From Pseudomonadota bacterium (GTDB taxonomy: Bacteria; Pseudomonadota; Alphaproteobacteria; RF32; CAG-239): a stretch of DNA of 38,767 nt. The notes beneath the pieces are model-generated. The model did no database searches and was not told the origin of the DNA. It was given only the letters and a program-made list of their open reading frames with translations. Numbering within the stretch: the first letter of the stretch is position 1; each line of letters starts with the position of its first letter. The DNA lies in NCBI GenBank assembly GCA_030523245.1, contig JAUNIW010000006.1, positions 1-38,767 on the forward strand, in the 5' to 3' direction. Made by a program: the position numbers and the translations under genes. Positions 3,486-19,582 of this stretch are shown here, in pieces.

Positions 3486-3560
3486 AGTTCCGTGGTGAAA
3501 CGGTTATCACGTATCCTTGACATGGATGAGTCTGCAGTTCAACTCTGCGCGGAACTACCA
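3486..3560 (+). tRNA. tRNA-Val(GAC)
   Basis: Cloverleaf: AGTTCCG/CGGAACT acceptor, GTGA/TCAC D stem, TATCC-TTGACAT-GGATG anticodon arm, TGCAG-TTCAACT-CTGCG T arm, A73, encoded CCA. Confidence 0.93.
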
Positions 3561-3590: not shown

Positions 3591-3665
3591 AGTTCTGTGG
3601 TGAAACGGTTATCACATATCCTTCACATGGATGGGTCGGCAGTTCAACTCTGCCCGGAACTACCA
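3591..3665 (+). tRNA. tRNA-Val(CAC)
   Basis: Same cloverleaf; anticodon loop TTCACAT; T arm GGCAG-TTCAACT-CTGCC; ACCA end. Confidence 0.93.
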
Positions 3666-6051: not shown

Positions 6052-6885
6052 ATGGCTTTGAATACATTTAAGCCCACTTCTGCAGGTCGCCGCCAACTTG
6101 TACTCGTTGATAAAAGCGAGTTATATAAGGGCAAACCTGAGAAAAGTTTAACGAAAGGTCTGAATAAGACCGGTGGGCGTGATAACTTTGGTCACGTTAC
6201 TAGTCGTCGTATCGGTGGCGGTCACAAACGCAGCTATCGTATGATTGACTTCAAACGTAATAAATTTGATTGTGAGGCTGTTGTCGAGAGAATCGAATAT
6301 GATCCAAACCGCACTGCTTTTATCGCGTTGGTAAATTACAATGATGGTGAAAAGGCTTATATTCTGGCTCCGCAACGTTTGAAAGCCGGCGATAAAATCA
6401 TTTCTGCCGAAAAAGCAGATATTAAGCCGGGTAATGCTATGCCTCTGAAGAATATGCCGGTCGGTACAATCGTGCACAACGTTGAACTGCGTTCTGGCAA
6501 AGGCGGACAGCTTGTTCGTTCTGCCGGTTGCTATGCTCAGGTTGTCGGTAAAGATGCCGGTTATGTTCAATTGAAACTAAACTCTGGCGAATTAAGAATC
6601 GTTCGTGAAGAATGTTTGGCAACCGTTGGTGCGGTTTCCAATCCGGATAATCAGAACGTTTCCCTCAGTAAAGCCGGTCGCGCTCGCTGGATGGGTATGA
6701 GACCTGTTTCCCGCGGTGTTGCAATGAACCCGGTTGATCACCCGCTCGGTGGTGGTGAAGGCAGAACTTCAGGTGGCCGTCATCCGGTTACACCTTGGGG
6801 TAAACCGACTAAGGGCGCTAAGACTCGTTCTAACAAGAAGACGGATCGCTTTATTATGAGATCTCGTCATGATAACAAAAATTAA
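6052..6885 (+). CDS. rplB: 50S ribosomal protein L2
   Basis: [30 protein letters not shown]. Confidence 0.99.
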
Positions 6886-9135: not shown

Positions 9136-9504
9136 ATGATACAAATGCAAACCAACCTAGATGTTGCTGATAATTCTGGAGCACGCCAGGTGCAGTGCAT
9201 AAAGGTTCTTGGTGGTTCCAAGAGAATGACTGCCTCTGTCGGTGATGTTATCGTTGTCGCAGTACAAGATGCTTTGCCGAAAGGGCACGTTAAAAAAGGT
9301 GATGTACATAAGGCCGTTATCGTAAGAACAGCCAGTGACATCAGACGTAAAGACGGTAGTGTTATCCGTTTTGACAGCAATGCAGCCGTTCTGATTAACA
9401 AAGACGGTGAACCAATCGGTACACGTATCTTTGGTCCTGTAACCAGAGAGCTGCGCGCTAAAAAATTTATGAAAATCATTTCATTAGCACCGGAGGTATT
9501 GTAG
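9136..9504 (+). CDS. rplN: 50S ribosomal protein L14
   Basis: [27 protein letters not shown]. Confidence 0.99.
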
Positions 9505-9505
9505 T

Positions 9506-9814
9506 ATGCCTAAAATGAAAATTAAGAAAAACGATACAGTTATTGTTCTGTCGGGTGACGATAAAGGCAAAATCGGTGTCGTAAAACAAGCAATGCCTAA
9601 GGAAAACAAGGTTATTGTCGAAGGCGTTAATTTAGTTAAACGTCACACAAAACCTTCTGATAAAAATCCGGGCGGGATTGTAACAAAAGAGGCTGCCATC
9701 AACGTATCTAACGTTGCTATTGCCAAAGACGGCAAAGCAACAAAAGTCGGATACAAAGTCGTTGACGGCAAAAAAGTACGTTTTGCACGTAAATCCGGTG
9801 ACGTAATCGATTAA
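9506..9814 (+). CDS. rplX: 50S ribosomal protein L24
   Basis: KOW motif [25 protein letters not shown]. Confidence 0.97.
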
Positions 9815-9828
9815 TAGGGGAAAATTTT

Positions 9829-10368
9829 ATGGCAAATTTTGAAACATTATATAACGACGTCATAAAGAAATCTCTTGTGGAAAAATTCGGTTACAAGAAC
9901 CCACATGAGATTCCAAAGCTGACAAAAATCGTTTTGAATATGGGTATCGGCGATGCCGTTACCGATAAGAAAAAAGTAACGACCGCTATGGAAGAGTTGG
10001 CTTTGATTGCCGGACAACAGCCGGTTATGACTAAAGCCCGCAAGTCTATTGCTACCTTCAAATTGCGTGAAGGTATGCCGATTGGCTGCAAAGTTACACT
10101 GCGTTCCGAAAAAATGTATGAATTTTTGGAAAGACTGGTTAATATGGCCTTGCCGCGAATCAGAGACTTCCACGGAATTACGGGTAAGAACTTCGATGGC
10201 AGAGGAAACTTCGCTTTCGGTATTAAAGAACAGATAATCTTTCCTGAAATCAACTATGAAAAAGTTGATGAAATCAGAGGATTGGATGTTGTTATTTGTA
10301 CAACAGCTAAGACAGATGAAGAAGCTAAATTTTTGCTGACTTCATTCAACCTGCCTTACAAGAAATAA
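9829..10368 (+). CDS. rplE: 50S ribosomal protein L5
   Basis: [31 protein letters not shown]. Confidence 0.98.
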
Positions 10369-10382
10369 GCGGAGATTTTACT

Positions 10383-10688
10383 ATGTCAAAAACAAGTTCG
10401 GTTTACAGAAACTTGAAAAGAGTAAAGATGGCTGAGAAGTATGCTAATCGCCGTCAAAAACAAAAAGCAATTGCGATGGATAAAAATGCTTCTCCGGAAG
10501 AAAGAATGCAGGCGCAGTTTGCTTTGCAAAAATTTCCTAAGAATTCTGCCAGATGCCGTATCAGAAATCGTTGCAGAATTACGGGACGTTCACGCAGTTA
10601 TTACAGAAAATTTGGCCTGAGCCGTGTTGAATTGAGAGATTTGGCAAGCTTTGGTAAAATTCCTGGTTTAGTAAAATCAAGTTGGTAA
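10383..10688 (+). CDS. rpsN: 30S ribosomal protein S14 (long form, no zinc ribbon)
   Basis: [19 protein letters not shown]; 101 aa. Confidence 0.97.
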
Positions 10689-10705
10689 GAAGGGAGAATG
10701 ATATC

Positions 10706-11104
10706 ATGTCTATGAGTGATCCTTTGGGCGATATGCTCGCACGCATTAAAAACGCACAAAGAGCTAAGAAGAGTGATGTTGTATCACCTGCTTCTCGCTT
10801 GCGTGAAAATGTGTTAGAAGTTTTGAAAAGAGAAGGCTACATTGCCGGTTATGAAAAAACCAATGTACGTCCGGGTATTGATGAACTTCATATTCAATTA
10901 AAGTACTACGAAGGTAGTGCCGTTATTACTGAAATTTACCGTGTATCTACGCCGGGTCGTCGCGTTTATTCCAGCGTTAAAGACCTGCCGAGAGTTTACA
11001 ACGGCCTTGGTATTTCCATTATTTCTACCCCGATGGGTGTTATGAGTGATAATGAAGCGCGTAAGGCCAATGTTGGCGGTGAAGTTTTGTGCCAAGTATT
11101 CTAA
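10706..11104 (+). CDS. rpsH: 30S ribosomal protein S8
   Basis: [27 protein letters not shown]. Confidence 0.97.
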
Positions 11105-11116
11105 GGAGAAAACAGT

Positions 11117-11653
11117 ATGTCAAGAGTTGGTAAATATCCTGTTGTTGTTCCTGCTGGCGTAGAATTAACCATCAATAACAACGTTGTAACCGCAAAAGGT
11201 AAATTAGGCGAACTTCATTTTGCCTTTGACGACAGCCATGTTTCAGCTAAGCTGGAAGACGGTAAAGTTGTTGTCACACCACATTCTCTGAGCCTGACAG
11301 CCAGAGCTTTGTGGGGCACAACCCGCGCTCAGATTCAAACCATTGTAAAAGGTGTGAGCGAAGGTTTTACAAAAGATATGGAACTTGTCGGCGTGGGTTA
11401 TAAAGCCCGTGTAGAAGGCAAAAATCTCGTTTTGTCTTTAGGCTTTTCGCATGATGTGGTTTTTCCGGCACCGGAAGGTGTGAAAATTACGTGCGAATCT
11501 CCGACACAAATTAAAATCTTTGGTGCCGACAAACAGCTGGTTGGTCAAGTTGCCGCTGAATTGCGCAAATACAGAAAACCTGAACCTTATAAAGGTAAAG
11601 GTGTGAAGTATGCCGGTGAAGCCGTTCGTCGTAAAGAAGGTAAGAAGAAATAA
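11117..11653 (+). CDS. rplF: 50S ribosomal protein L6
   Basis: [17 protein letters not shown]. Confidence 0.98.
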
Positions 11654-11664
11654 GGAATAATTCA

Positions 11665-12027
11665 ATGAATACACCAAGAAATTTGTTTGAGAGAAGAAAG
11701 GCTCGTGTTAGATCTGCAATTAAAGCAGCTGCAAACAGCAAATTGAGATTATCTGTTTTCCGCAGCGGCAAGCATATCTATGCACAAATCATTGACGATG
11801 TAAAAGGCTCAACAGTTGCTTCCGCTTCTACTCTGGATAAGGAAGTCAGAGCTAACATCAAAAAATCTTCTACAGTTGAAGCTGCCGGCTTCATTGGTAA
11901 ATTAATTGCTGAAAGAGCAACAAAATCCGGTATTTCCGAAGTGGTTTTTGACCGCGGCGGTTATATCTATCACGGTCGTGTTAAAGCTTTGGCCGATGCT
12001 GCTCGTGAAGCTGGTCTGAAATTCTAG
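11665..12027 (+). CDS. rplR: 50S ribosomal protein L18
   Basis: [31 protein letters not shown]. Confidence 0.98.
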
Positions 12028-12036
12028 GAGAGAAAG

Positions 12037-12603
12037 ATGGTACAATCTACAGATCGTCATAATTCTAAAAAAGAAGTAAAAGATGAATTGGTTGAAAAAC
12101 TGGTTCATGTAAACCGTGTTGCCAAAACAGTAAAAGGCGGCCGTACAATGTCATTTGCCGCGGTTGTTGTTGTCGGGGATCAGAAAGGCCGTATCGGATT
12201 TGGTTCCGGTAAAGCTGCCGAAGTTCCTGAAGCTATTGTTAAAGCAACCAATGAAGCCAAAAAGAATATGATTCGTATTCCGCTTCGTGAAGGCAGAACA
12301 TTGCATCATGACGTCGCTGGTCGTTTCGGGGCCGGAAAAGTTGTTCTGAGAACAGCTCCTGCCGGTACCGGTGTTATTGCCGGCGGTCCGATGCGTGCCG
12401 TGTTTGAAGTTTTGGGCGTACAGGATGTTGTTGCAAAATCTTTGGGCTCCAACAATCCTTACAATATGATTAAAGCTACTTTTGCTGCTTTACAGGCAAT
12501 CAATTCTCCGAGAATGGTTGCTACAAAACGCGGTAAAAAAGTAGGTGATATTGTGAGCCGCCGTGAAAACACAACCGGTAAAGAAGTGAAAGAGGAGGCA
12601 TAA
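12037..12603 (+). CDS. rpsE: 30S ribosomal protein S5
   Basis: [29 protein letters not shown]. Confidence 0.98.
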
Positions 12604-12606
12604 TCT

Positions 12607-12792
12607 ATGGCTGCTAATAAAACTATCAAAGTTACCAGAACTGGTAGCACAATCGGTCGTCCGGCTATTCAGGAAACTCACCTGAAAAGTCTGGGGTTAA
12701 CAAAAACAGGCCGCACAGTTGTTGTAGAAGATACACCGGCAATTCGCGGTTTGATTAAAAAAGTGGCTCATCTGGTTAAAGTTGAAGAATAA
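12607..12792 (+). CDS. rpmD: 50S ribosomal protein L30
   Basis: LGL.K.GRTV, TPAIRGLIKKVAHLV. Confidence 0.95.
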   Translation: MAANKTIKVTRTGSTIGRPAIQETHLKSLGLTKTGRTVVVEDTPAIRGLIKKVAHLVKVEE

Positions 12793-12884
12793 TTTTGTGA
12801 GCCTGTGTTTGTTAATTTGTAAATGAAGGCAGGCTCGCAGAAATTTCTTGATTGAATCAGACTAAACTATATAAGGTAAATAAA

Positions 12885-13346
12885 ATGAAACTGAATGAAT
12901 TAAAAGATAACGAAGGTGCGACAAAAAATCGTAAACGCGTTGGTCGTGGTATCGGTTCCGGTAAAGGCAAAACCTGCGGTTTAGGCCACAAGGGTCAGAA
13001 AGCCCGTTCCGGTGGTGCCAAAATGGGTTTTGAAGGCGGTCAAATGCCTTTATACCGTCAGTTGCCAAAGCATGGCTTTAAGAATCCGTTTGCAAAGACT
13101 TATGCCGTTGTAAATCTGGATACGATTCAAAAAGCTATTGATGCCGGTAAATTGGACGCCAAAGCTATTGATGTTGAGTCTTTGTTGAAGTCAAATGTTG
13201 TTTCCAAGCAATTGGACGGCATTCGTCTGCTGGCTCGCGGTGCTGTTACCAGCAGCATCAATATCACAGTCGACTCTGCTTCTAAATCAGCTGTTGAAGC
13301 TGTAGAAAAAGCAGGCGGCAAAGTTAATTTTGTTGCTGCAAAATAA
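12885..13346 (+). CDS. rplO: 50S ribosomal protein L15
   Basis: [29 protein letters not shown]. Confidence 0.97.
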
Positions 13347-13371
13347 TTAAAGTTATTTGCTAAAATTATTA

Positions 13372-13412
13372 AAAATCCCCGTTCAGATGAATGGGGATTT
13401 TCTATTTTTTTT
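13372..13412 (+). terminator. Intrinsic terminator after rplO
   Basis: AAAATCCCCGTTC-agat-GAATGGGGATTTT followed by a T run. Confidence 0.85.
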
Positions 13413-13413
13413 C

Positions 13414-13442
13414 TTTACTTTTGTTCTGTCTTTGTTTAATAT
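13414..13442 (+). promoter_or_regulatory. Promoter of pilin cassette 1
   Basis: TTTACT-17 nt-TAATAT; same motif and spacing at 18702-18730. Confidence 0.7.
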
Positions 13443-13449
13443 TTTAGGT

Positions 13450-13636
13450 GGATGACGGATAGTTTATCTGGGGTGTGACAACCTCTTGAAGATACGTCTT
13501 TATGCAAAGACGCTAAATAAGCATACCTTCTGGTCTATGGATCGGAAGGTAGCAAAATGTGCTATGTGCTAATATGCTACACTGCATTATCTTCAGCAGT
13601 TGTCAACTTCCGGTCGTCTTTTTAGACGGCTTTTTT
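13450..13636 (+). ncRNA. Unrecognised structured leader RNA/ncRNA, copy 1, ending in an intrinsic terminator
   Basis: 5' hairpin 13450-69; TGACAAC/GTTGTCA; TGAAGATA/TATCTTCA; inner hairpins 13495-512, 13524-551, 13557-587; terminator GGTCGTCT-tttt-AGACGGCT-T run; topology shared with copy 2. Confidence 0.7.
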
Positions 13637-13663
13637 ATTGTTAATCTTAAAAAGGAAGTTGTT

Positions 13664-14269
13664 ATGAATTTTAATCAATCGGGGCGTTCAATGATAGAAA
13701 TGCTTGGTGTGTTAGCCATTATTGCCGTGTTGTCTGTTGGTGGTATTGCGGGGTATTCAAAAGCAATGCAGCAATGGAAACTGAATAAATGGAAAGCGCA
13801 AATTACAGATATAATCTTTGCGCTTAAAGACGTTTATAAAAATGAAAAAAATTTTGGCAGCAATGGCATTAATCTTTTGCCTTTTTTGAAAGGAATAGGA
13901 GTGGTTCCGCAAGGTATGCTGGATGAGAACAATAAAGATTTATTTGGAAATACTGTATCAATAAATATTCGAGCCGATGGATTGGCAGATGGTTCAATAC
14001 TTCAGCGTTTTGCTGTATATTTTTCTACCCGGCCATCAGTAACGGCAGAGCAAAATTGCCGTGAGCTTTATTCTTTTGCGCAAACAGATCCTGATGTTCA
14101 TGCAGTGGTTAATTGGGCTAACGGATATCGTACTTGCGGTAAATATGTAGAAGATGCGTATAAACAAGTAATGCCTTGCCATGAATATAATATGCAGGAG
14201 GTCGCAAAAAAGTGTAAAGTTTGCCAAGAACGTTCTTGTACTTTGATTCTTTTGTACAGAAATAACTAA
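13664..14269 (+). CDS. Type IV pilin-like protein with non-canonical G|RSMIE N-terminus
   Basis: SD AAGGA; MNFNQSG|RSMIEMLGVLAIIAVLSVGGIAGY with Glu+5 and hydrophobic helix; 6 Cys in the C-terminal domain. Confidence 0.88.
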   Translation: MNFNQSGRSMIEMLGVLAIIAVLSVGGIAGYSKAMQQWKLNKWKAQITDIIFALKDVYKNEKNFGSNGINLLPFLKGIGVVPQGMLDENNKDLFGNTVSINIRADGLADGSILQRFAVYFSTRPSVTAEQNCRELYSFAQTDPDVHAVVNWANGYRTCGKYVEDAYKQVMPCHEYNMQEVAKKCKVCQERSCTLILLYRNN

Positions 14270-14413
14270 AATGTCTATCGAATCGAAAAAAGTGTAGAAA
14301 AACTGAGGATAAAGATAAATTAGTTGCAAAAAAAATATTTTTGTGTAATAGATTAAAGCCAAGTGGGTTTTTATAACCCTATGTTTTGTTTTTAAAATTT
14401 TAAGGATTAAAAA

Positions 14414-15763
14414 ATGGTATCATTAGCAGAAAAAATGGCGGCCAATATTGATATGTCTGCCTTTAGCAAAGCCGACGAATTAAAGAAAAGACTTTGGTTT
14501 ACGGTATGGGCTTTGATTATTTTCCGTTTAGGCACATATATTCCGCTTCCGGGCATCAACCCTGCGGTATTGGCTGAAATGTTCAGTCGGAATCAAGGCG
14601 GTATTTTGGGAATGTTTAATATGTTTTCCGGTGGTGCATTGGAACGTATGACGATTTTTGCCCTGAATATTATGCCGTACATTTCCGCTTCCATTATTAT
14701 CCAGCTCGGTCAGTCGGTTATTCCGTCTTTAATGGCTTTGAAAAAAGAAGGGGAAGCCGGTCATCGTAAAATTACGCATTATACAAAATGCCTGACGGTT
14801 TTGATTACGATAATTCAAGGTTATGGTATTGCCGTCGGTCTGGAAAGTGTTTCCGGTGCCAATGGCGCATCTGCCGTAATGATTGACAGTTTTGCCTTCA
14901 GATTTTCGACCATTGTTTCTCTGGTCGGCGGTACCATGTTTATTGTCTGGCTGGGAGACCAGATTACACAGCGTGGTGTCGGTAATGGTTCTTCCCTGAT
15001 TATTACCGTTGGTATTATCGCCAATATACCGAATGCTTTGGCTCAGACTTTTGAACTGGGGCGTGCCGGTCAGATGTCGGTTATGACGATTTTGATGCTG
15101 TTGGTAATGGCTTTGGCTTTGATTTATGTTATAGTGTTTGTTGAAAGAGCACAAAGAAAGATTATTATTCAATATCCGAAGCGTCAGATGGGTATGCGCA
15201 TGATGGCTGCGGAAAGTTCTCACCTGCCGTTGAAAATTAACCCGACAGGCGTTATTCCGCCTATCTTTGCCAGCTCTTTGCTGCTGCTGCCGATTACAAT
15301 TGCAAATTTATCTGCCGAAAAAGGTCCGTCATGGGTACAGAGTCTGAGTCAGATGCTGGGACATGGTCAGCCTGTTTATCTGGCCTTGTATGCCTTTTTG
15401 ATTCTGTTCTTTACCTTCTTTTATACCTCAGTGGTATTTAATCCTCAGGAGACGGCGGATAATCTGAAGAAACACGGCGGATTTATTGCCGGTATCCGTC
15501 CGGGTAAAAATACGGCCGAATATCTGGATTATGTGATTACGCGTTTAACGGTGATTGCGTCTATTTATCTGGTTTGTTTGTGTATTTTGCCTGAACTGCT
15601 TATCAGCAAAGTCGGTGTACCGTTTGTTCTGGGTGGCACAACACTGCTCATCGTTGTGCAGGTAACAATGGATTTTGTCGGACAAATTCAGTCGCATCTG
15701 ATTGCTTATCAGTATGAGGGACTTTTGAAAAAAGCGGCTTTGATTAAAAAGAAAGGGCGTTAA
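14414..15763 (+). CDS. secY: Preprotein translocase subunit SecY
   Basis: IFALNIMPYISASII, GVGNGSSL, GVIPPIFASS, GIRPG, GGTTLLIVV. Confidence 0.99.
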   Translation: MVSLAEKMAANIDMSAFSKADELKKRLWFTVWALIIFRLGTYIPLPGINPAVLAEMFSRNQGGILGMFNMFSGGALERMTIFALNIMPYISASIIIQLGQSVIPSLMALKKEGEAGHRKITHYTKCLTVLITIIQGYGIAVGLESVSGANGASAVMIDSFAFRFSTIVSLVGGTMFIVWLGDQITQRGVGNGSSLIITVGIIANIPNALAQTFELGRAGQMSVMTILMLLVMALALIYVIVFVERAQRKIIIQYPKRQMGMRMMAAESSHLPLKINPTGVIPPIFASSLLLLPITIANLSAEKGPSWVQSLSQMLGHGQPVYLALYAFLILFFTFFYTSVVFNPQETADNLKKHGGFIAGIRPGKNTAEYLDYVITRLTVIASIYLVCLCILPELLISKVGVPFVLGGTTLLIVVQVTMDFVGQIQSHLIAYQYEGLLKKAALIKKKGR

Positions 15764-16431
15764 TGTCTGAAACAAAGAAAGGCTTATATGTTGTTTTTAC
15801 CGGTGCTCCGGGGTGCGGTAAAGGAACACAGGCTCGAATTCTGAAAGAAAAAACTCATATCTGTCATTTATCGACAGGAGAAATGCTGAGGGAGTATGCA
15901 TCAAAGGATACTCCCTTGGGTCGTGATTTAAAAAAGCTTTTGGATAAAGGCGAGTTTGCTACCGATGAGATGATTATTGAAATGGTGCGTAACCGCATCG
16001 GTCAGCCGGATTGCGAACGAGGATTTATTCTGGACGGTTTTCCGCGGACACTTCCGCAGGCCGAAGTTTTGGAAGGTCTGTTAGCGGAAAAGGGAATTAA
16101 ATTAAATTGCGTTTTGGAGATTCAGGTTCCGGATGAAATCATTATGGAACGTATTCTGGGACGATATTCATGCTTAAAATGCGGTGCCGGTTATCATGAT
16201 AAATTCCAAAAACCTAAAGTTTACGGCGTCTGTGATGTTTGCGGCGGAACGGAATTCGGCCGCCGGAAAGATGACAATCGTGCGACGGTACAGAATCGTC
16301 TGGTTAACTATCGTCTGCTGACCTATCCGACAATCCAGTTTTTTGAAAAACGGGGGTTGCTGCGTACGGTTGACGGTACCGGAACGATTGAGGCGGTCAG
16401 TCACAAAATTGATGAGATTCTCGGTTTGTAA
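15763..16431 (+). CDS. adk: Adenylate kinase with zinc-binding LID
   Basis: GAPGCGKGTQA, LDGFPRT, CLKC...CDVC. Confidence 0.98.
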   Translation: MSETKKGLYVVFTGAPGCGKGTQARILKEKTHICHLSTGEMLREYASKDTPLGRDLKKLLDKGEFATDEMIIEMVRNRIGQPDCERGFILDGFPRTLPQAEVLEGLLAEKGIKLNCVLEIQVPDEIIMERILGRYSCLKCGAGYHDKFQKPKVYGVCDVCGGTEFGRRKDDNRATVQNRLVNYRLLTYPTIQFFEKRGLLRTVDGTGTIEAVSHKIDEILGL

Positions 16432-16435
16432 AATT

Positions 16436-16460
16436 GCCGGCCGTCAAAGGCCGGTTTTGT
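16436..16460 (+). terminator. Probable terminator after adk
   Basis: GCCGGCC-gtcaaa-GGCCGGT-TTTGT. Confidence 0.65.
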
Positions 16461-16586
16461 ATATATTCTAAAGTTTTGGTTTTAGATATTTTTCAGCATA
16501 AGTACCGTTTGAGGTTAAAAACATCATATACTTTGTTTTATTTGCAAAAATATGTAAAAAAATTTAAGTAATTTGCAGAAAAGGGG

Positions 16587-16615
16587 TTGACTCTGATAAA
16601 TATCGTGCCTATAAT
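16587..16615 (+). promoter_or_regulatory. Promoter of the alpha operon
   Basis: TTGACT-17 nt-TATAAT. Confidence 0.85.
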
Positions 16616-16686
16616 CCGCTTAATTTTGAAAAGTGGTGATCAACTTTTTGAATGTATTAATTAATTGAAAGTAATGGAGATTAAAT

Positions 16687-17055
16687 TTGGCTCGTATAGC
16701 TGGTGTAAATATTCCAAGTGCCAAGAGAATTGAAGTCGCACTGACTTATATCTTCGGTATTGGTAGAAAATCTGCTCAAGATATTTGTGCAAAGTCAGGA
16801 ATTGATATGAACCGTCGTGTCAGTCAGCTTTCTGATGAAGAAATCATGAAAATCCGCGAAGTAATCGATAACGGATACCTTGTAGAAGGTGAACTCCGTC
16901 GTGAAGTCGGTACCAACATTAAGAGATTGATGGATTTGGGTTGCTATCGTGGTTTAAGACATCGTAAAGGCTTGCCTGTTCGCGGTCAGAGTACAAAACA
17001 AAATGCTCGTACCCGTAAAGGTAAACGCAAAACCGTTGCAAATAAGAAGAAATAA
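16687..17055 (+). CDS. rpsM: 30S ribosomal protein S13 (TTG start)
   Basis: [24 protein letters not shown]; SD GGAG. Confidence 0.98.
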
Positions 17056-17070
17056 GTGAGGTAAGTGCAA

Positions 17071-17457
17071 ATGGCTAAAGCAGTTCTGAAAAAGAAAAAA
17101 GAAAAAAAGAATATCACTTCCGGTGTAGCTCACGTTGATTCTTCTTTTAACAACACAAGAGTTACAATTACGGATGCTCAGGGAAATACCGTGTCTTGGT
17201 CTACAGCCGGTGCGCAGGGTTTTAAAGGTTCTAGAAAATCTACGCCTTATGCCGCACAGATTGCCGCTGAAGAAGCTGGTAAAAAGGCTCAGGAAAATGG
17301 TATGAAAACTCTGGAAGTAGAAGTTAAAGGACCAGGGTCAGGCAGAGAGTCTGCAATTCGCGCATTGCAGGTAATCGGTTTTACAATCACAACAATTCGT
17401 GATGTAACCCCAATTCCGCATAATGGTTGTCGTCTGAGAAAAAGACGTCGCGTCTAG
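17071..17457 (+). CDS. rpsK: 30S ribosomal protein S11
   Basis: [24 protein letters not shown]. Confidence 0.98.
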
Positions 17458-17467
17458 TTATTATTTT

Positions 17468-17505
17468 GGCACAGGCCTTTTTCAAGGCCTGTTGCCGTGT
17501 TTTTT
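17468..17505 (+). terminator. Terminator-like hairpin between rpsK and rpoA
   Basis: GGCACAGGCCTT-tttc-AAGGCCTGT(T)GCC then GTGTTTTTT. Confidence 0.6.
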
Positions 17506-17543
17506 ATATGTACATGTAACTTTTCTAGAAAAGGACAAAACCG

Positions 17544-18554
17544 GTGATTCAAAAGAATTGGCAAGAACTTATTAAACCAACTAATTTGCAAGTTTCTCAA
17601 GATGAGGCTGCTCATAAAGCAAAGATAGTGGTTGAACCTTTAGAGAGAGGCTTTGGCCTTACTTTAGGTAATGCGTTGAGAAGAGTTTTACTGTCCTCTC
17701 TGCAGGGCGGAGCTGTTTCCGCTATTAAAATTGACGGTGTTTTGCATGAATTTTCCGTTATTCCTGGCGTACGCGAGGATGTGACGGATATTGTGCTGAA
17801 CATCAAAGAATTGGCGGTTGCCGTTCACTCGGAAAGCGCAAAAACAATGACATTGAAAGCTGAAGGTCCTTGTGTGGTCACGGCAGCTATGATTGAAACC
17901 GGTCACGATGTCGAAATTATGAATCCGGAGCATGTGATTTGCACATTGGATGCCGGTGCAAAAATCAATATGGAATTGACGGTTACAACAGGTAAAGGCT
18001 ATGTTCCGGCTTATAACAGCAAGTCGGCAGATGCTCCGATTGGTTTAATCGCCGTAGATGCTATTTATTCTCCGGTTACAAAAGTTTCATACAAAGTTGA
18101 AAATACCCGCGTTGGTCAGATTACCGATTATGATAAGCTGACAATGAACGTTGAAACCAACGGCGTTGTTTCTCCGGAAGATGCTGTTGCATTGGCTGCG
18201 CGTATTCTGCAAGACCAGCTCAAACCGTTTATCAACTTTGACGAACCGGAAAGCGAATCGGAAGATATTCATGAAGAATTGCCGTTTAACCGCAATCTGC
18301 TGCGTAAGGTTGATGAGCTTGAATTGTCTGTTCGTTCGGCAAATTGCCTGAAAAATGATAACATCATCTATATTGGTGATTTGGTTCAAAAGACTGAAGC
18401 AGAAATGCTGCGTACACCTAACTTTGGCCGTAAATCTTTGAATGAAATCAAAGAAGTGCTGGCTAAAATGGGAATTCATCTGGGTATGGAAACACCGGGA
18501 TGGCCGCCTGAAAATATTGAAGAATTGATAAAGCGGTGTGATGAGCATTTCTAA
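17544..18554 (+). CDS. rpoA: RNA polymerase alpha subunit (GTG start)
   Basis: [43 protein letters not shown]. Confidence 0.99.
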
Positions 18555-18591
18555 AATCTGAGTTAATGGCGTAATCAGCGCCGGACACTGT

Positions 18592-18647
18592 AAAAGAGAG
18601 AAAATTTATGTACTTTGTGTGCAGTTATTTTCTCTCTTTTTTGTTTT
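18592..18647 (+). terminator. Long hairpin/terminator after rpoA
   Basis: Perfect 14-bp inverted repeat AAAAGAGAGAAAAT/ATTTTCTCTCTTTT followed by TTGTTTT. Confidence 0.7.
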
Positions 18648-18701
18648 GGTACAATAAATGTCAGGCTGCTGAATAGTTTTGCCGGTAAATTGTATTTTTG
18701 C

Positions 18702-18730
18702 TTTACAATTTTAGTTTGTTTGGCTAATAT
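18702..18730 (+). promoter_or_regulatory. Promoter of pilin cassette 2
   Basis: TTTACA-17 nt-TAATAT; matches 13414-13442. Confidence 0.7.
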
Positions 18731-18737
18731 TATAAAT

Positions 18738-18922
18738 GGATAAACGATAGTTTATTCAGGGCGTGAGACCCCTTTGTTCTGTCGGTCGCAAAGGCGACCT
18801 AAAATATGTCGATGTCTGTTGGTCGGATGTCGGCTAAATACGGTTATATACCAAATAGGTCGAGCCGTAGACAGATACGGTGTCTCAACATCCGCCCGCT
18901 TTTATATGGCGGGTTTTTGTTT
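18738..18922 (+). ncRNA. Unrecognised structured leader RNA/ncRNA, copy 2, ending in an intrinsic terminator
   Basis: GGATAAAC-gata-GTTTATTC; TGAGAC/GTCTCA; TCTGTC/GACAGA; inner hairpins 18784-99, 18808-34, 18839-69; terminator GCCCGCT/GGCGGGT plus T run. Confidence 0.7.
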
Positions 18923-18946: not shown

Positions 18947-19582
18947 ATGTATCAGGTGTTTAAAAGCGGCAGCAGTGCTGAACATACGGGCAGAACTGTT
19001 TCGTATGGCGGCCGCTCCATGATTGAAATGTTGGGCGTACTGGCCATTATCGGCGTTTTATCCGTCGGCGGAATTGCCGATTATTCAAAAGCCATGCAGC
19101 GGTTTAAGTTTAATAAGTGGCGGCAACAGATAGAAGATTTGATTTTTTCTGTTAAAGAAGCATACAGATTTGGCGGTCGGTATGGTACGGGAAACGAAAA
19201 TATTTTACCGGTTTTAAAGGATATCGGAGCCGTTCCGCAGGATATGCTGGATAAAAATAATAAGGATTTATTTGGCAATGACGTACGTTTGGTAATGAAA
19301 CCGCTTGATATCTATAACCGACTGAATTTGCAGTTTATTACAGAACCAAATGAAGATGCGGTGCAAGTTTGTCACGATTTATTTTATATGGCAATGATGT
19401 ACCCGAATGATATCTGGACGACGGTAGTTTGTAAAGGCTTTAATTGTAACGGGGCTTGGCTTTTCAGAATATGCGGAAAAGTTGCACCGAAAGGATATGG
19501 CGGCAATGAGTGTCAGGACTATAATCTTACTAAAGTTATGTCTGTTTGTAATATATGCGCAACAAATGTGTGTACTCTTTAG
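18947..19582 (+). CDS. Type IV pilin-like protein, paralogue of 13664..14269; probably truncated by a premature TAG
   Basis: G|RSMIEMLGVLAIIGVLSVGGIADYSKAM; shared block LP.LK.IG.VPQ.MLD.NNKDLFGN; 8 Cys; homologous frame continues to 19606. Confidence 0.85.
   Translation: MYQVFKSGSSAEHTGRTVSYGGRSMIEMLGVLAIIGVLSVGGIADYSKAMQRFKFNKWRQQIEDLIFSVKEAYRFGGRYGTGNENILPVLKDIGAVPQDMLDKNNKDLFGNDVRLVMKPLDIYNRLNLQFITEPNEDAVQVCHDLFYMAMMYPNDIWTTVVCKGFNCNGAWLFRICGKVAPKGYGGNECQDYNLTKVMSVCNICATNVCTL

Follow-up and report, generated by a model that had tools for sequence, protein, structure and literature searches.

What are the two structured regions that lie ahead of two pilin-like genes in a 38,767-nucleotide (nt) stretch of an alphaproteobacterial genome (contig JAUNIW010000006.1; hereafter the window, meaning this whole stretch), and what do they do there? 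Our analyses show that both are copies of a previously uncatalogued, highly repeated leader RNA of ~190 nt carried by uncultured gut Alphaproteobacteria. They probably represent a family of cis-acting 5' leaders that attenuate transcription by means of an encoded alternative fold. The source genome has 1.45 Mb and 41.5% G+C, and the two regions, both on contig C40, are located in its ribosomal-protein/secY/adk/rpoA gene cluster: region 1 between rplO (L15) and secY, ahead of a gene for a 201-amino acid (aa) pilin-like protein, and region 2 after rpoA, ahead of a 211-aa pilin-like paralogue. The two pilin-like genes, each with its promoter, leader and terminator, interrupt the conserved ribosomal-protein/secY/adk/S13-S11-rpoA cluster (context 9136-18554), and in some relatives (L074, L092, L100 and L102) a leader adjoins secY on the opposite strand.

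A sequence-only reading of the window had described a common order of promoter, short motifs and helices in the two regions, and direct inspection found all of these features in place in both copies, on the + strand. The copy 1 promoter (13414-13442) consists of a -35 box TTTACT (13414-13419), a 17-nt spacer and a -10 box TAATAT (13437-13442), whereas copy 2 (18702-18730) has TTTACA (18702-18707), the same 17-nt spacer and TAATAT (18725-18730). In each case 7 nt separate the -10 box from a GGAT, at 13450 and 18738, respectively. The sequence GATAGTTTAT followed by GGG(T/C)GTGA occurs exactly twice in the 1.45-Mb genome, in these two regions. A promoter scan of the window reported 18702-18730 and did not report 13414-13442, which was read from the sequence, and a terminator scan reported 13612-13631 and 18894-18914. 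RNAfold recovered for both copies the helices described beforehand, giving a common architecture: a 5' hairpin (P0), an outer helix (P1), a second helix (P2), a four-way junction with hairpins P3, P4 and P5, and a terminator. The minimum free energy (MFE) is -69.3 kcal/mol for copy 1 (z -7.11) and -76.9 kcal/mol for copy 2 (z -6.84), and in neither case was any of 200 shuffled sequences as stable (0/200).

The leader RNA of copy 1 spans 13449-13637 from its predicted start to the U-run of the terminator. P0 (13450-13470), with a GAUA-type loop, is followed at 13470-13485 by a GGGG segment (a, 13470-13473), the 5' strand of P1 (13475-13481) and a CCUC segment (c, 13482-13485), and at 13487-13512 by the 5' strand of P2 (13487-13494) and the P3 hairpin (13495-13512). 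The P4 hairpin (13521-13553) comprises a 5' arm (b, 13521-13535), a loop and a 3' arm (b', 13540-13553) with a conserved GGAAGG, and P5 (13549-13580) has an outer stem GUAGCA (13549-13554)/UGCUAC (13575-13580) and a conserved A-rich internal loop (AAAUA/AAUA). At 13600-13615 follow the 3' strand of P1 (13600-13607) and a UCC (a', 13609-13611), the latter within a stretch (13607-13615) that overlaps the 5' arm of the intrinsic terminator (13612-13637; stem 13612-13631, then the U-run). Copy 2, of a subtype that we call B, spans 18737-18920, its terminator stem (18894-18914) also ending in a U-run. In a contig of run X4 (type unrecorded) that covers nearly the whole stretch, the U-run of terminator 1 has one extra T (13630) and the T-run after the rplO terminator has one base fewer (13405); both are cases of strain-to-strain variation in homopolymer length at the ends of terminators.

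The element is not limited to the two pilin-like genes at which it was first read, and occurs in many further copies ahead of several gene classes. It is readable before at least nine more pilin-like loci of the source genome. A covariance model, R1, derives from the MAFFT alignment and RNAalifold consensus of nine source-genome copies, and it matches copy 1 at 13446-13639 (185.8 bits) and copy 2 at 18734-18922 (150 bits). It has 17 matches at E < 1e-6 in the source genome and 46 in a 1.5-Mb relative (G012). Every sampled genome of the genus (36/36) had matches; of the 151 genomes searched in the order, 147 had them, and all of its 20 genera (20/20) were represented. Across the class, sampled with one genome per family, 14 of 151 genomes carried the leader, all of them 0.9-2.0 Mb in size. 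A very small alphaproteobacterial genome (G250; 0.9 Mb, 5 contigs, 100% complete) has five copies with a GGAGGG/CCUCC variant of the antiterminator described below. Complete leaders also occur in tandem ahead of a single gene, every one of them with its own promoter and terminator: two in the source genome (G000:C48:5964-6160 and 6267-6470), three in L045 (66-256, 333-527 and 603-795) and two in G012 (C1:61138-61330 and 61777-61977).

Covariation shows that the structure of this RNA is under selection. Already among the nine source-genome copies, 31 of the 50 consensus pairs carry compensatory changes. In an alignment of 40 distinct sequences from ~30 genomes, standard pairs occupy 94.4% of 1943 alignment cells and 44 of the 50 modelled pairs have changed on both sides, which bears out the selection on RNA structure suspected from the two window copies; none of 500 shuffles reached any of these measures, and controls in which the partners were slid by 1-3 columns paired in only 35-48%. 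In these 40 sequences every pair is compensated in P2 (helix 3; 8/8 pairs, 97.4% of cells paired), in the outer stem of P5 (helix 6; 6/6, 97%) and in the terminator (helix 7; 7/7 modelled pairs, 98.2%). P0 (helix 1) covaries in 9/9 modelled pairs and P4 (helix 5) is paired in 89.7%, with numerous G-U pairs; P1 and P3 are helices 2 and 4 of the model. The same fold, with new compensations, was found in 28 copies from other genera and in 23 copies from ~12 other families. Since many of the conserved pairs are G-U, the strand that folds is the strand of the downstream gene.

The position of the leader with respect to promoter and gene is equally regular. The typical upstream arrangement is CTTTAC(T/A)TTT-17-TAAAAT, in the same register in most copies, with CTTGAC in other genera. 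A TT[TG]AC-N17-19-TAnnnT motif stands in register before 84 of the 132 distinct leaders examined for it, where shuffled sequences gave 1.3 on average and 6 at most, so that the promoter at fixed distance noticed in the window holds for the family as a whole. The intrinsic terminator just before the gene, also noticed there, is confirmed by the terminator scan and by its covarying stem. We took a census of 113 distinct leaders, a biased set made up of all source-genome and G012 matches plus the best matches of other genomes. An open reading frame (ORF) of at least 50 aa lies downstream of 109 of them, and in 102 of these 109 it starts on the same strand within 36 nt of the end of the model. This leaves no room for a second promoter, and the gene is therefore reachable only through the terminator. 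An RNA-seq library has one assembled contig that spans 13435-13899, from leader 1 into the pilin ORF, with DNA carry-over possible; such contigs give no start, end, strand or level, and this one, being compatible with read-through, lends the attenuator reading weak support. The contigs of run X1 do not cover 18575-18805 (leader 2) and cover little upstream of 13435, contig gaps to which we attach no weight, those of run X11 match the window in short pieces only (90-95% identical), and those of run X10 do not match it at all.

The leader also encodes a second fold. The P4 3' arm, made up of a GGAAGG or GGAUGU motif plus four copy-specific bases, has nine bases of complementarity to a stretch reaching from the end of P1 into the 5' arm of the terminator. 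In copy 1, 13540-13548 (GAUCGGAAG) faces 13607-13615 (CUUCCGGUC), a column mapping that we checked; in copy 2, 18824-18830 (CGGAUGU) faces 18888-18894 (ACAUCCG), as seen from covariation and in the forced fold, and this second strand runs into the terminator (18888-18920 together). In an alignment of 94 distinct sequences (A3), 94.6% of 794 cells of this antiterminator are paired and 6 of its 9 pairs are compensatory, with 110 compensatory cells, whereas slid partners pair in 27-48% and none of 500 shuffles reaches the score. These pairs are absent from model R1. Besides the strands of the two window copies, GGCUGGAAG/CUUCCAGCC and GGCAGGAAG/CUUCCUGCC co-vary, and copy-specific matches extend across 12 further families, for instance GGUUGGAGGG/CCUCCAACC, GCCAGAAGG/CUUCUGGC and GUCGGGGAGG/CUCCCCGGC in distant ones. 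The antiterminator competes with P4, the base of P1 and the terminator, none of which can form alongside it. It is mostly Watson-Crick, whereas the competing upper part of P4 is rich in G-U pairs and mismatches, and some lineages have an internal loop of P4 opposite GGAAG. The sequence-only reading had thus been right that an alternative pairing sequesters the 5' arm of the terminator, this helix being conserved, and wrong about the partner, which is the 3' arm of P4. The two pairings that it had proposed can be drawn in the window copies but lack conservation in the family: for 13450-59 and 13609-19, 58% of 873 cells are paired, and for 18759-63 and 18893-97, 76% of 460.

Two further pairings appear spontaneously when copy 1 is folded with the antiterminator forced. 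One, a:c, joins the 5' GGGG with the CCUC after the 5' strand of P1; it is formed in 90.7% of cells, with 3 of 4 pairs compensatory and G-C replaced by A-U in 19 sequences. Segment a of copy 1 has as possible partners either segment c or the UCC at 13609-13611. The other, H6, is a hairpin (ACUAU...AUAGU) whose arms flank the 3' strand of P2. In copy 1 it lies at 13581-13600, pairing ACUGC (13581-13585) with GCAGU (13596-13600) and holding the P2 3' strand (13588-13595) in its loop. At least 4 base pairs (bp) of H6 can form in 78 of the 87 leaders; combining the 5' and 3' arms of different leaders gives 38 +/- 3.8, and 47 at most. At least eight stem sequence types exist, with compensated variants such as ACUGC/GCAGU, ACCAU/AUGGU, GCCGU/ACGGU and AUCAU/AUGAU. 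The 5' GGG(U/C)GU might also pair with AU(A/G)CC, which forms the base of the P4 5' arm; support for this comes from the two major subtypes only, and we do not count it as evidence.

These observations suggest the following sequence of events. Transcription would start at the sigma-70-type promoter a few bases before P0, and the long P1/P2 helix would close the four-way junction carrying P3, P4 and P5. RNA polymerase would then meet the Rho-independent terminator that directly follows, ~25-35 nt before the start codon, and stop, leaving the gene off. Alternatively, the P4 3' arm would form a 9-bp helix with the last bases of P1 and the terminator's 5' arm, destroying the terminator and allowing read-through; a:c and H6 would accompany this fold, with H6 looping out strands of P1 and P2. 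An effector binding the nascent leader would select between the two folds. Termination appears to be the default, judging from predicted energies and from the order of synthesis: imposing the antiterminator lowers stability by a mean of 15.9 kcal/mol over 86 leaders, P4 is transcribed long before the terminator, and in 85 of the 86 RNAs truncated before the terminator 3' arm the antiterminator is missing from the MFE structure. Switching the gene on would then require that P4 be kept from forming or be undone. The attenuator "off by default" envisaged by the sequence-only reading accordingly fits the covarying antiterminator and a terminator fold predicted to be ~16 kcal/mol more stable.

Several points weigh against this account. 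The alignments follow the model to which they were fitted, and relatives from one genus make up most of them; counting cells thus inflates the number of independent changes. The covariation of a:c is modest, and slid controls pair well too in this G/CU-rich stretch, while the a:a' pairing (GGG:UCC) is invariant and hence gives no covariation signal. Both a:c and H6 may instead belong to the terminator fold, as tertiary pseudoknots, and not to the alternative one. Finally, the antiterminator fold is much less stable than its competitor and needs P1, P2 and P4 to be opened, which means that a strong effector must be postulated.

The genes behind the leaders also bear on what the element may be. 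In the window these are pilin-like gene 1 (13664-14269), with the ribosome-binding site GGAAGUU at 13654-13660 and an N-terminal G|RSMIE class III signal, and pilin-like gene 2 (18947-19582), whose product is 46% identical to that of gene 1. A GTG-started ORF of 236 aa runs from 13559, after a Shine-Dalgarno-like GGAAGG, in frame through terminator 1 into the pilin gene (to 14269); with no counterpart in copy 2 or in other copies, it is probably due to chance. By tblastn, the source genome has ~19 pilin-like paralogous loci. The products of the pilin-like genes downstream of the leaders have, at the N-terminus, to which this test was confined, the class III signal of type IV pilins, G|RSMIEMLGVLAII, with G at -1, E at +5 and a hydrophobic helix. 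They have weak matches to N_methyl and prepilin-peptidase-dependent protein profiles, one paralogue passing TIGR02532 (16.8 against a cut-off of 16.3), and the same genome encodes PilB/PilT-like ATPases of the type IV pilus. Six of the pilin-like paralogues (G000:C93:20019, C65:27318, C74:4617, C74:5255, C53:2166 and C53:2741) lack a leader; several of these stand directly behind another gene in operon-like fashion, so that pilins may be expressed in two ways side by side.

The regulon reaches far beyond the pilins. Among the 113 distinct leaders of the census, 61 precede pilin-like genes, 48 other ORFs and 4 none (counting ORFs of at least 50 aa within 300 nt). In the source genome 11 of 17 leaders stand ahead of pilin-like genes, other targets being a DUF6150 protein, an MBOAT acyltransferase, a 492-aa protein with a signal peptide and a 161-aa protein behind the tandem pair, with one leader lacking a clear assignment. 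In G012 we read 39 of 46 leaders as standing ahead of pilin-like genes, and one precedes a GT2 glycosyltransferase. Two G012 leaders, L148 (C9:28209-29894) and L158 (C4:12279-13960), are followed by ORFs resembling frameshifted or fused pilin genes, one of 63 aa and one of 287 aa with a MYKNFE start and without the GRSMIEML signal, which may be pseudogenes or assembly errors. Elsewhere the targets include a GT29 (sialyltransferase-family) protein and RgpF, beta-barrel outer-membrane proteins with a weak opacity-family match, lipoproteins of PEGA and TRL-like types among others, four families of DNA N6-methylases, one of them that of the EcoRI methylase, together with a resolvase-like protein and small membrane proteins. 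The gene classes associated with the leader are those that are phase-variable in other host-adapted bacteria.

Could each copy instead be a stand-alone gene for a trans-acting small RNA that merely adjoins pilin and other genes? This was the second of two alternatives offered by the sequence-only reading, and of the two it is the attenuator that has held up. Every copy does have its own promoter and an efficient-looking terminator, the terminator fold is so strongly favoured that mostly short RNAs would be made, and some copies stand before another copy or without any ORF of at least 50 aa within 300 nt (4/113). However, the 102 of 109 leaders that end within 36 nt of a co-oriented start codon leave no space for another promoter, and a covarying antiterminator would be purposeless in a pure small RNA. 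Moreover, the helices differ so freely in sequence that the copies share no common seed for pairing in trans beyond short conserved motifs, and CsrA, the usual partner of GGA-rich decoys, has no match (0) in the source genome. We therefore regard a stand-alone small RNA as improbable.

Slightly less credit goes to the idea that the leader acts mainly on translation or mRNA stability, through pairing of an AACUUCC that includes a' with a GGAAGUU ribosome-binding site. In copy 1 the AACUUCC at 13605-13611 is indeed perfectly complementary to the GGAAGUU at 13654-13660, and GGAAG-type ribosome-binding sites follow 30 of 70 leaders of CUUCC type but none of 26 of CAUCC type. This association is nevertheless confounded by the relatedness of the subfamilies, many leaders lack a ribosome-binding site of that kind (21 of 70 and 8 of 26 were scored as having none), and the four copy-specific bases of the antiterminator have no counterpart at the ribosome-binding site. 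As far as the sequences go, this pairing could be an added translational lock rather than the main mechanism.

If the leaders are attenuators, what would select the fold? A small-molecule ligand of the junction is a candidate, and so is a factor, protein or RNA, that would hold the 5' arm of P4 unpaired. A protein or RNA factor seems to us a reasonable though tentative choice, and a small molecule, which would make the leader a riboswitch, a choice to be entertained with about the same reserve or slightly more. The conserved unpaired nucleotides (GGGNGU, AACC, the AAAUA/AAUA internal loop of P5, CACUA, UAGUU and AAC-UUCC) offer hints in favour of a riboswitch, at least for those of the junction and the P5 loop. 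Several known regulators were also considered. The source genome has one NusG N-terminal domain match and no specialised second copy, and Rfam gave no JUMPstart match, on which grounds processive antitermination of the RfaH/LoaP/UpxY type was rejected; a CsrB/RsmY-type CsrA decoy was rejected likewise, CsrA being absent from this 98%-complete genome. A profile search for ANTAR proteins gave no match, but the control search was also empty (0/14 control genomes). A dual-hexaloop motif was not evident in the alignments, in which no formal search for it was made.

A more specific proposal, that the leader is a new class of riboswitch turning on pili and surface genes in response to cyclic di-GMP (c-di-GMP) or another cyclic dinucleotide, appears quite unlikely. 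The c-di-GMP-II riboswitch precedes pilA1 of Clostridioides difficile, where binding of the messenger turns the gene on, and the high copy number of our leader, together with a regulon of pili, adhesin-like and outer-membrane proteins and polysaccharide genes, resembles the regulons of c-di-GMP riboswitches. The source genome also has two GGDEF matches in addition to the type IV pilus ATPases. By contrast, no match to the Rfam c-di-GMP-I and c-di-GMP-II models was found even at E up to 10, and DNA methylases and a resolvase-like gene belong to the regulon. GGDEF domains were found in four of the five carriers searched, and G250, with its five leaders, has none, which weakens c-di-GMP as a general ligand. 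A weak GGDEF-like match (29.8 bits) lies at G000:C74:18447-18872, ~4 kb upstream of a leader/pilin cluster.

The remaining explanations fare worse still. A ribosome-mediated attenuator of the trp type, in which ribosomes stalled on a leader peptide frame over the P4 5' arm would free the P4 3' arm, would account for the exact 1:2, 2:3, 3:4 topology (the 5' and 3' arms of P4, then those of the terminator). Yet an open frame with a start codon covers the P4 5' arm in only 33, 25 and 18 of 87 leaders for the three frames, the ORF lengths scatter between 11 and 69 codons and the upstream helices vary freely in sequence, all of which makes this mechanism very improbable. As improbable is a selfish or neutral dispersed repeat (like Correia elements or miniature inverted-repeat transposable elements) with an outward promoter and no dedicated regulatory role, despite a density that reaches 46 copies per 1.5 Mb, the unrelated genes that follow them and their presence even within the ribosomal-protein/secY/rpoA cluster: orientation and distance to the start codon are fixed (102/109 within 36 nt), the element is kept in 20/20 genera of the order, no terminal inverted repeats or target duplications were noticed (no systematic search was made), and copies of the same genome are highly diverged, with whole helices swapped and compensated, implying long purifying selection on structure and not recent transposition.

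No Rfam family fits the leader. We compared it with the 4227 models of Rfam 15, including c-di-GMP-I/II, T-box, lysine, cobalamin, yybP-ykoY, JUMPstart, cow-rumen and Gut-1. At gathering thresholds, cmscan of the whole window found two tRNAs only, which are neighbouring genes at 3486-3557 and 3591-3662 (53.7 and 54 bits), and 20 further leader-bearing loci likewise gave only tRNAs. At E up to 10 the two regions had weak terminator-like or unrelated matches, the best of which (25 bits, against a gathering threshold of 44) fell outside the leader body. The sequence-only reading, too, had recognised no c-di-GMP, T-box, lysine, cobalamin or yybP consensus. Full-text literature searches found no description of the leader; the main text of PMC8040213 (Fremin & Bhatt 2021) contains no mention of Alphaproteobacteria, Azospirillum, prepilin, pili, Proteobacteria or methylation, and its supplementary tables, with thousands of candidates, may hold the motif.

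The class of mechanism that we propose is already known, in contrast to the RNA family, to the density of its copies and to the contingency-like character of its regulon, all of which are new. Riboswitches acting through a terminator and an antiterminator, such as SAM-I and the c-di-GMP-II example before pilA1, which also controls a type IV pilin gene, share several traits with it: in the 5' leader an intrinsic terminator comes after a junction of several helices, a strand of the structured domain serves for an antiterminator that excludes the terminator, and many copies per genome precede functionally related genes. They differ in that here an internal hairpin, P4, supplies the antiterminator strand with its 3' arm, in place of the closing helix; the predicted stability of the alternative fold is far lower, copies reach 46 per 1.5 Mb and Rfam has no match. 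The trp and his leader-peptide attenuators follow the same four-segment logic (1:2, 2:3 as antiterminator, 3:4 as terminator), but our leader lacks a conserved leader ORF and surrounds segments 1 and 2 with a large conserved junction domain. In the leaders controlled by BglG/SacY (the ribonucleic antiterminator, RAT), ANTAR proteins, PyrR, TRAP and HutP, a factor that stabilises one of two folds relieves or enforces default termination, possibly at several operons; their targets are short (one or two small hairpins), in contrast to the ~150-nt conserved multi-helix RNA described here. Post-initiation control of surface and accessory genes through a 5' leader is also the business of ops/JUMPstart-RfaH, LoaP, the UpxY proteins of Bacteroides and EAR RNA; these act by processive antitermination over long operons, whereas here a local terminator/antiterminator stands before mostly single genes. 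With the contingency loci of Neisseria, Haemophilus, Helicobacter and Bacteroides the leader has its gene classes in common, namely pilins, opacity-like outer-membrane proteins, lipoproteins, glycosyltransferases of lipopolysaccharide and capsule (here with a sialyltransferase-family protein among them) and DNA methyltransferases. Those loci switch by changes in DNA, such as repeat slippage and invertible promoters, while the shared element here is an RNA leader, and no repeat tract or invertible DNA was noticed (no search aimed at them was made).

It is tempting to go further and see in the leader a common gate, either a new riboswitch class or a new RNA-protein switch, OFF by default and with a limiting effector, for the contingency-type genes of an entire radiation of host-associated Alphaproteobacteria with small genomes, from dozens of alternative pilins to opacity-like outer-membrane proteins, lipoproteins, surface glycosyltransferases and DNA methylases. 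This is a speculative step, and we hold it to be somewhat unlikely. Were it true, such a gate could give condition-dependent or stochastic, mutually exclusive expression of surface variants, an RNA-based counterpart of DNA-based phase variation. More generally, the leader is present in nearly every searched genome of an order of uncultured gut and rumen Alphaproteobacteria and, at up to ~1 copy per 33 kb, would count among the most abundant uncatalogued structured leader RNAs of one bacterial lineage. It offers a marker for annotation that explains many "empty" 250-bp intergenic regions in the metagenome-assembled genomes of these bacteria, and a well-populated orphan riboswitch candidate, with hundreds of diverse sequences available for work on covariation, ligand and structure. 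If the attenuator reading holds, the leader would provide a route to the control of alternative pilins and of other surface and restriction-modification genes in gut bacteria with reduced genomes, with a bearing on host colonisation, immune evasion and phage defence.

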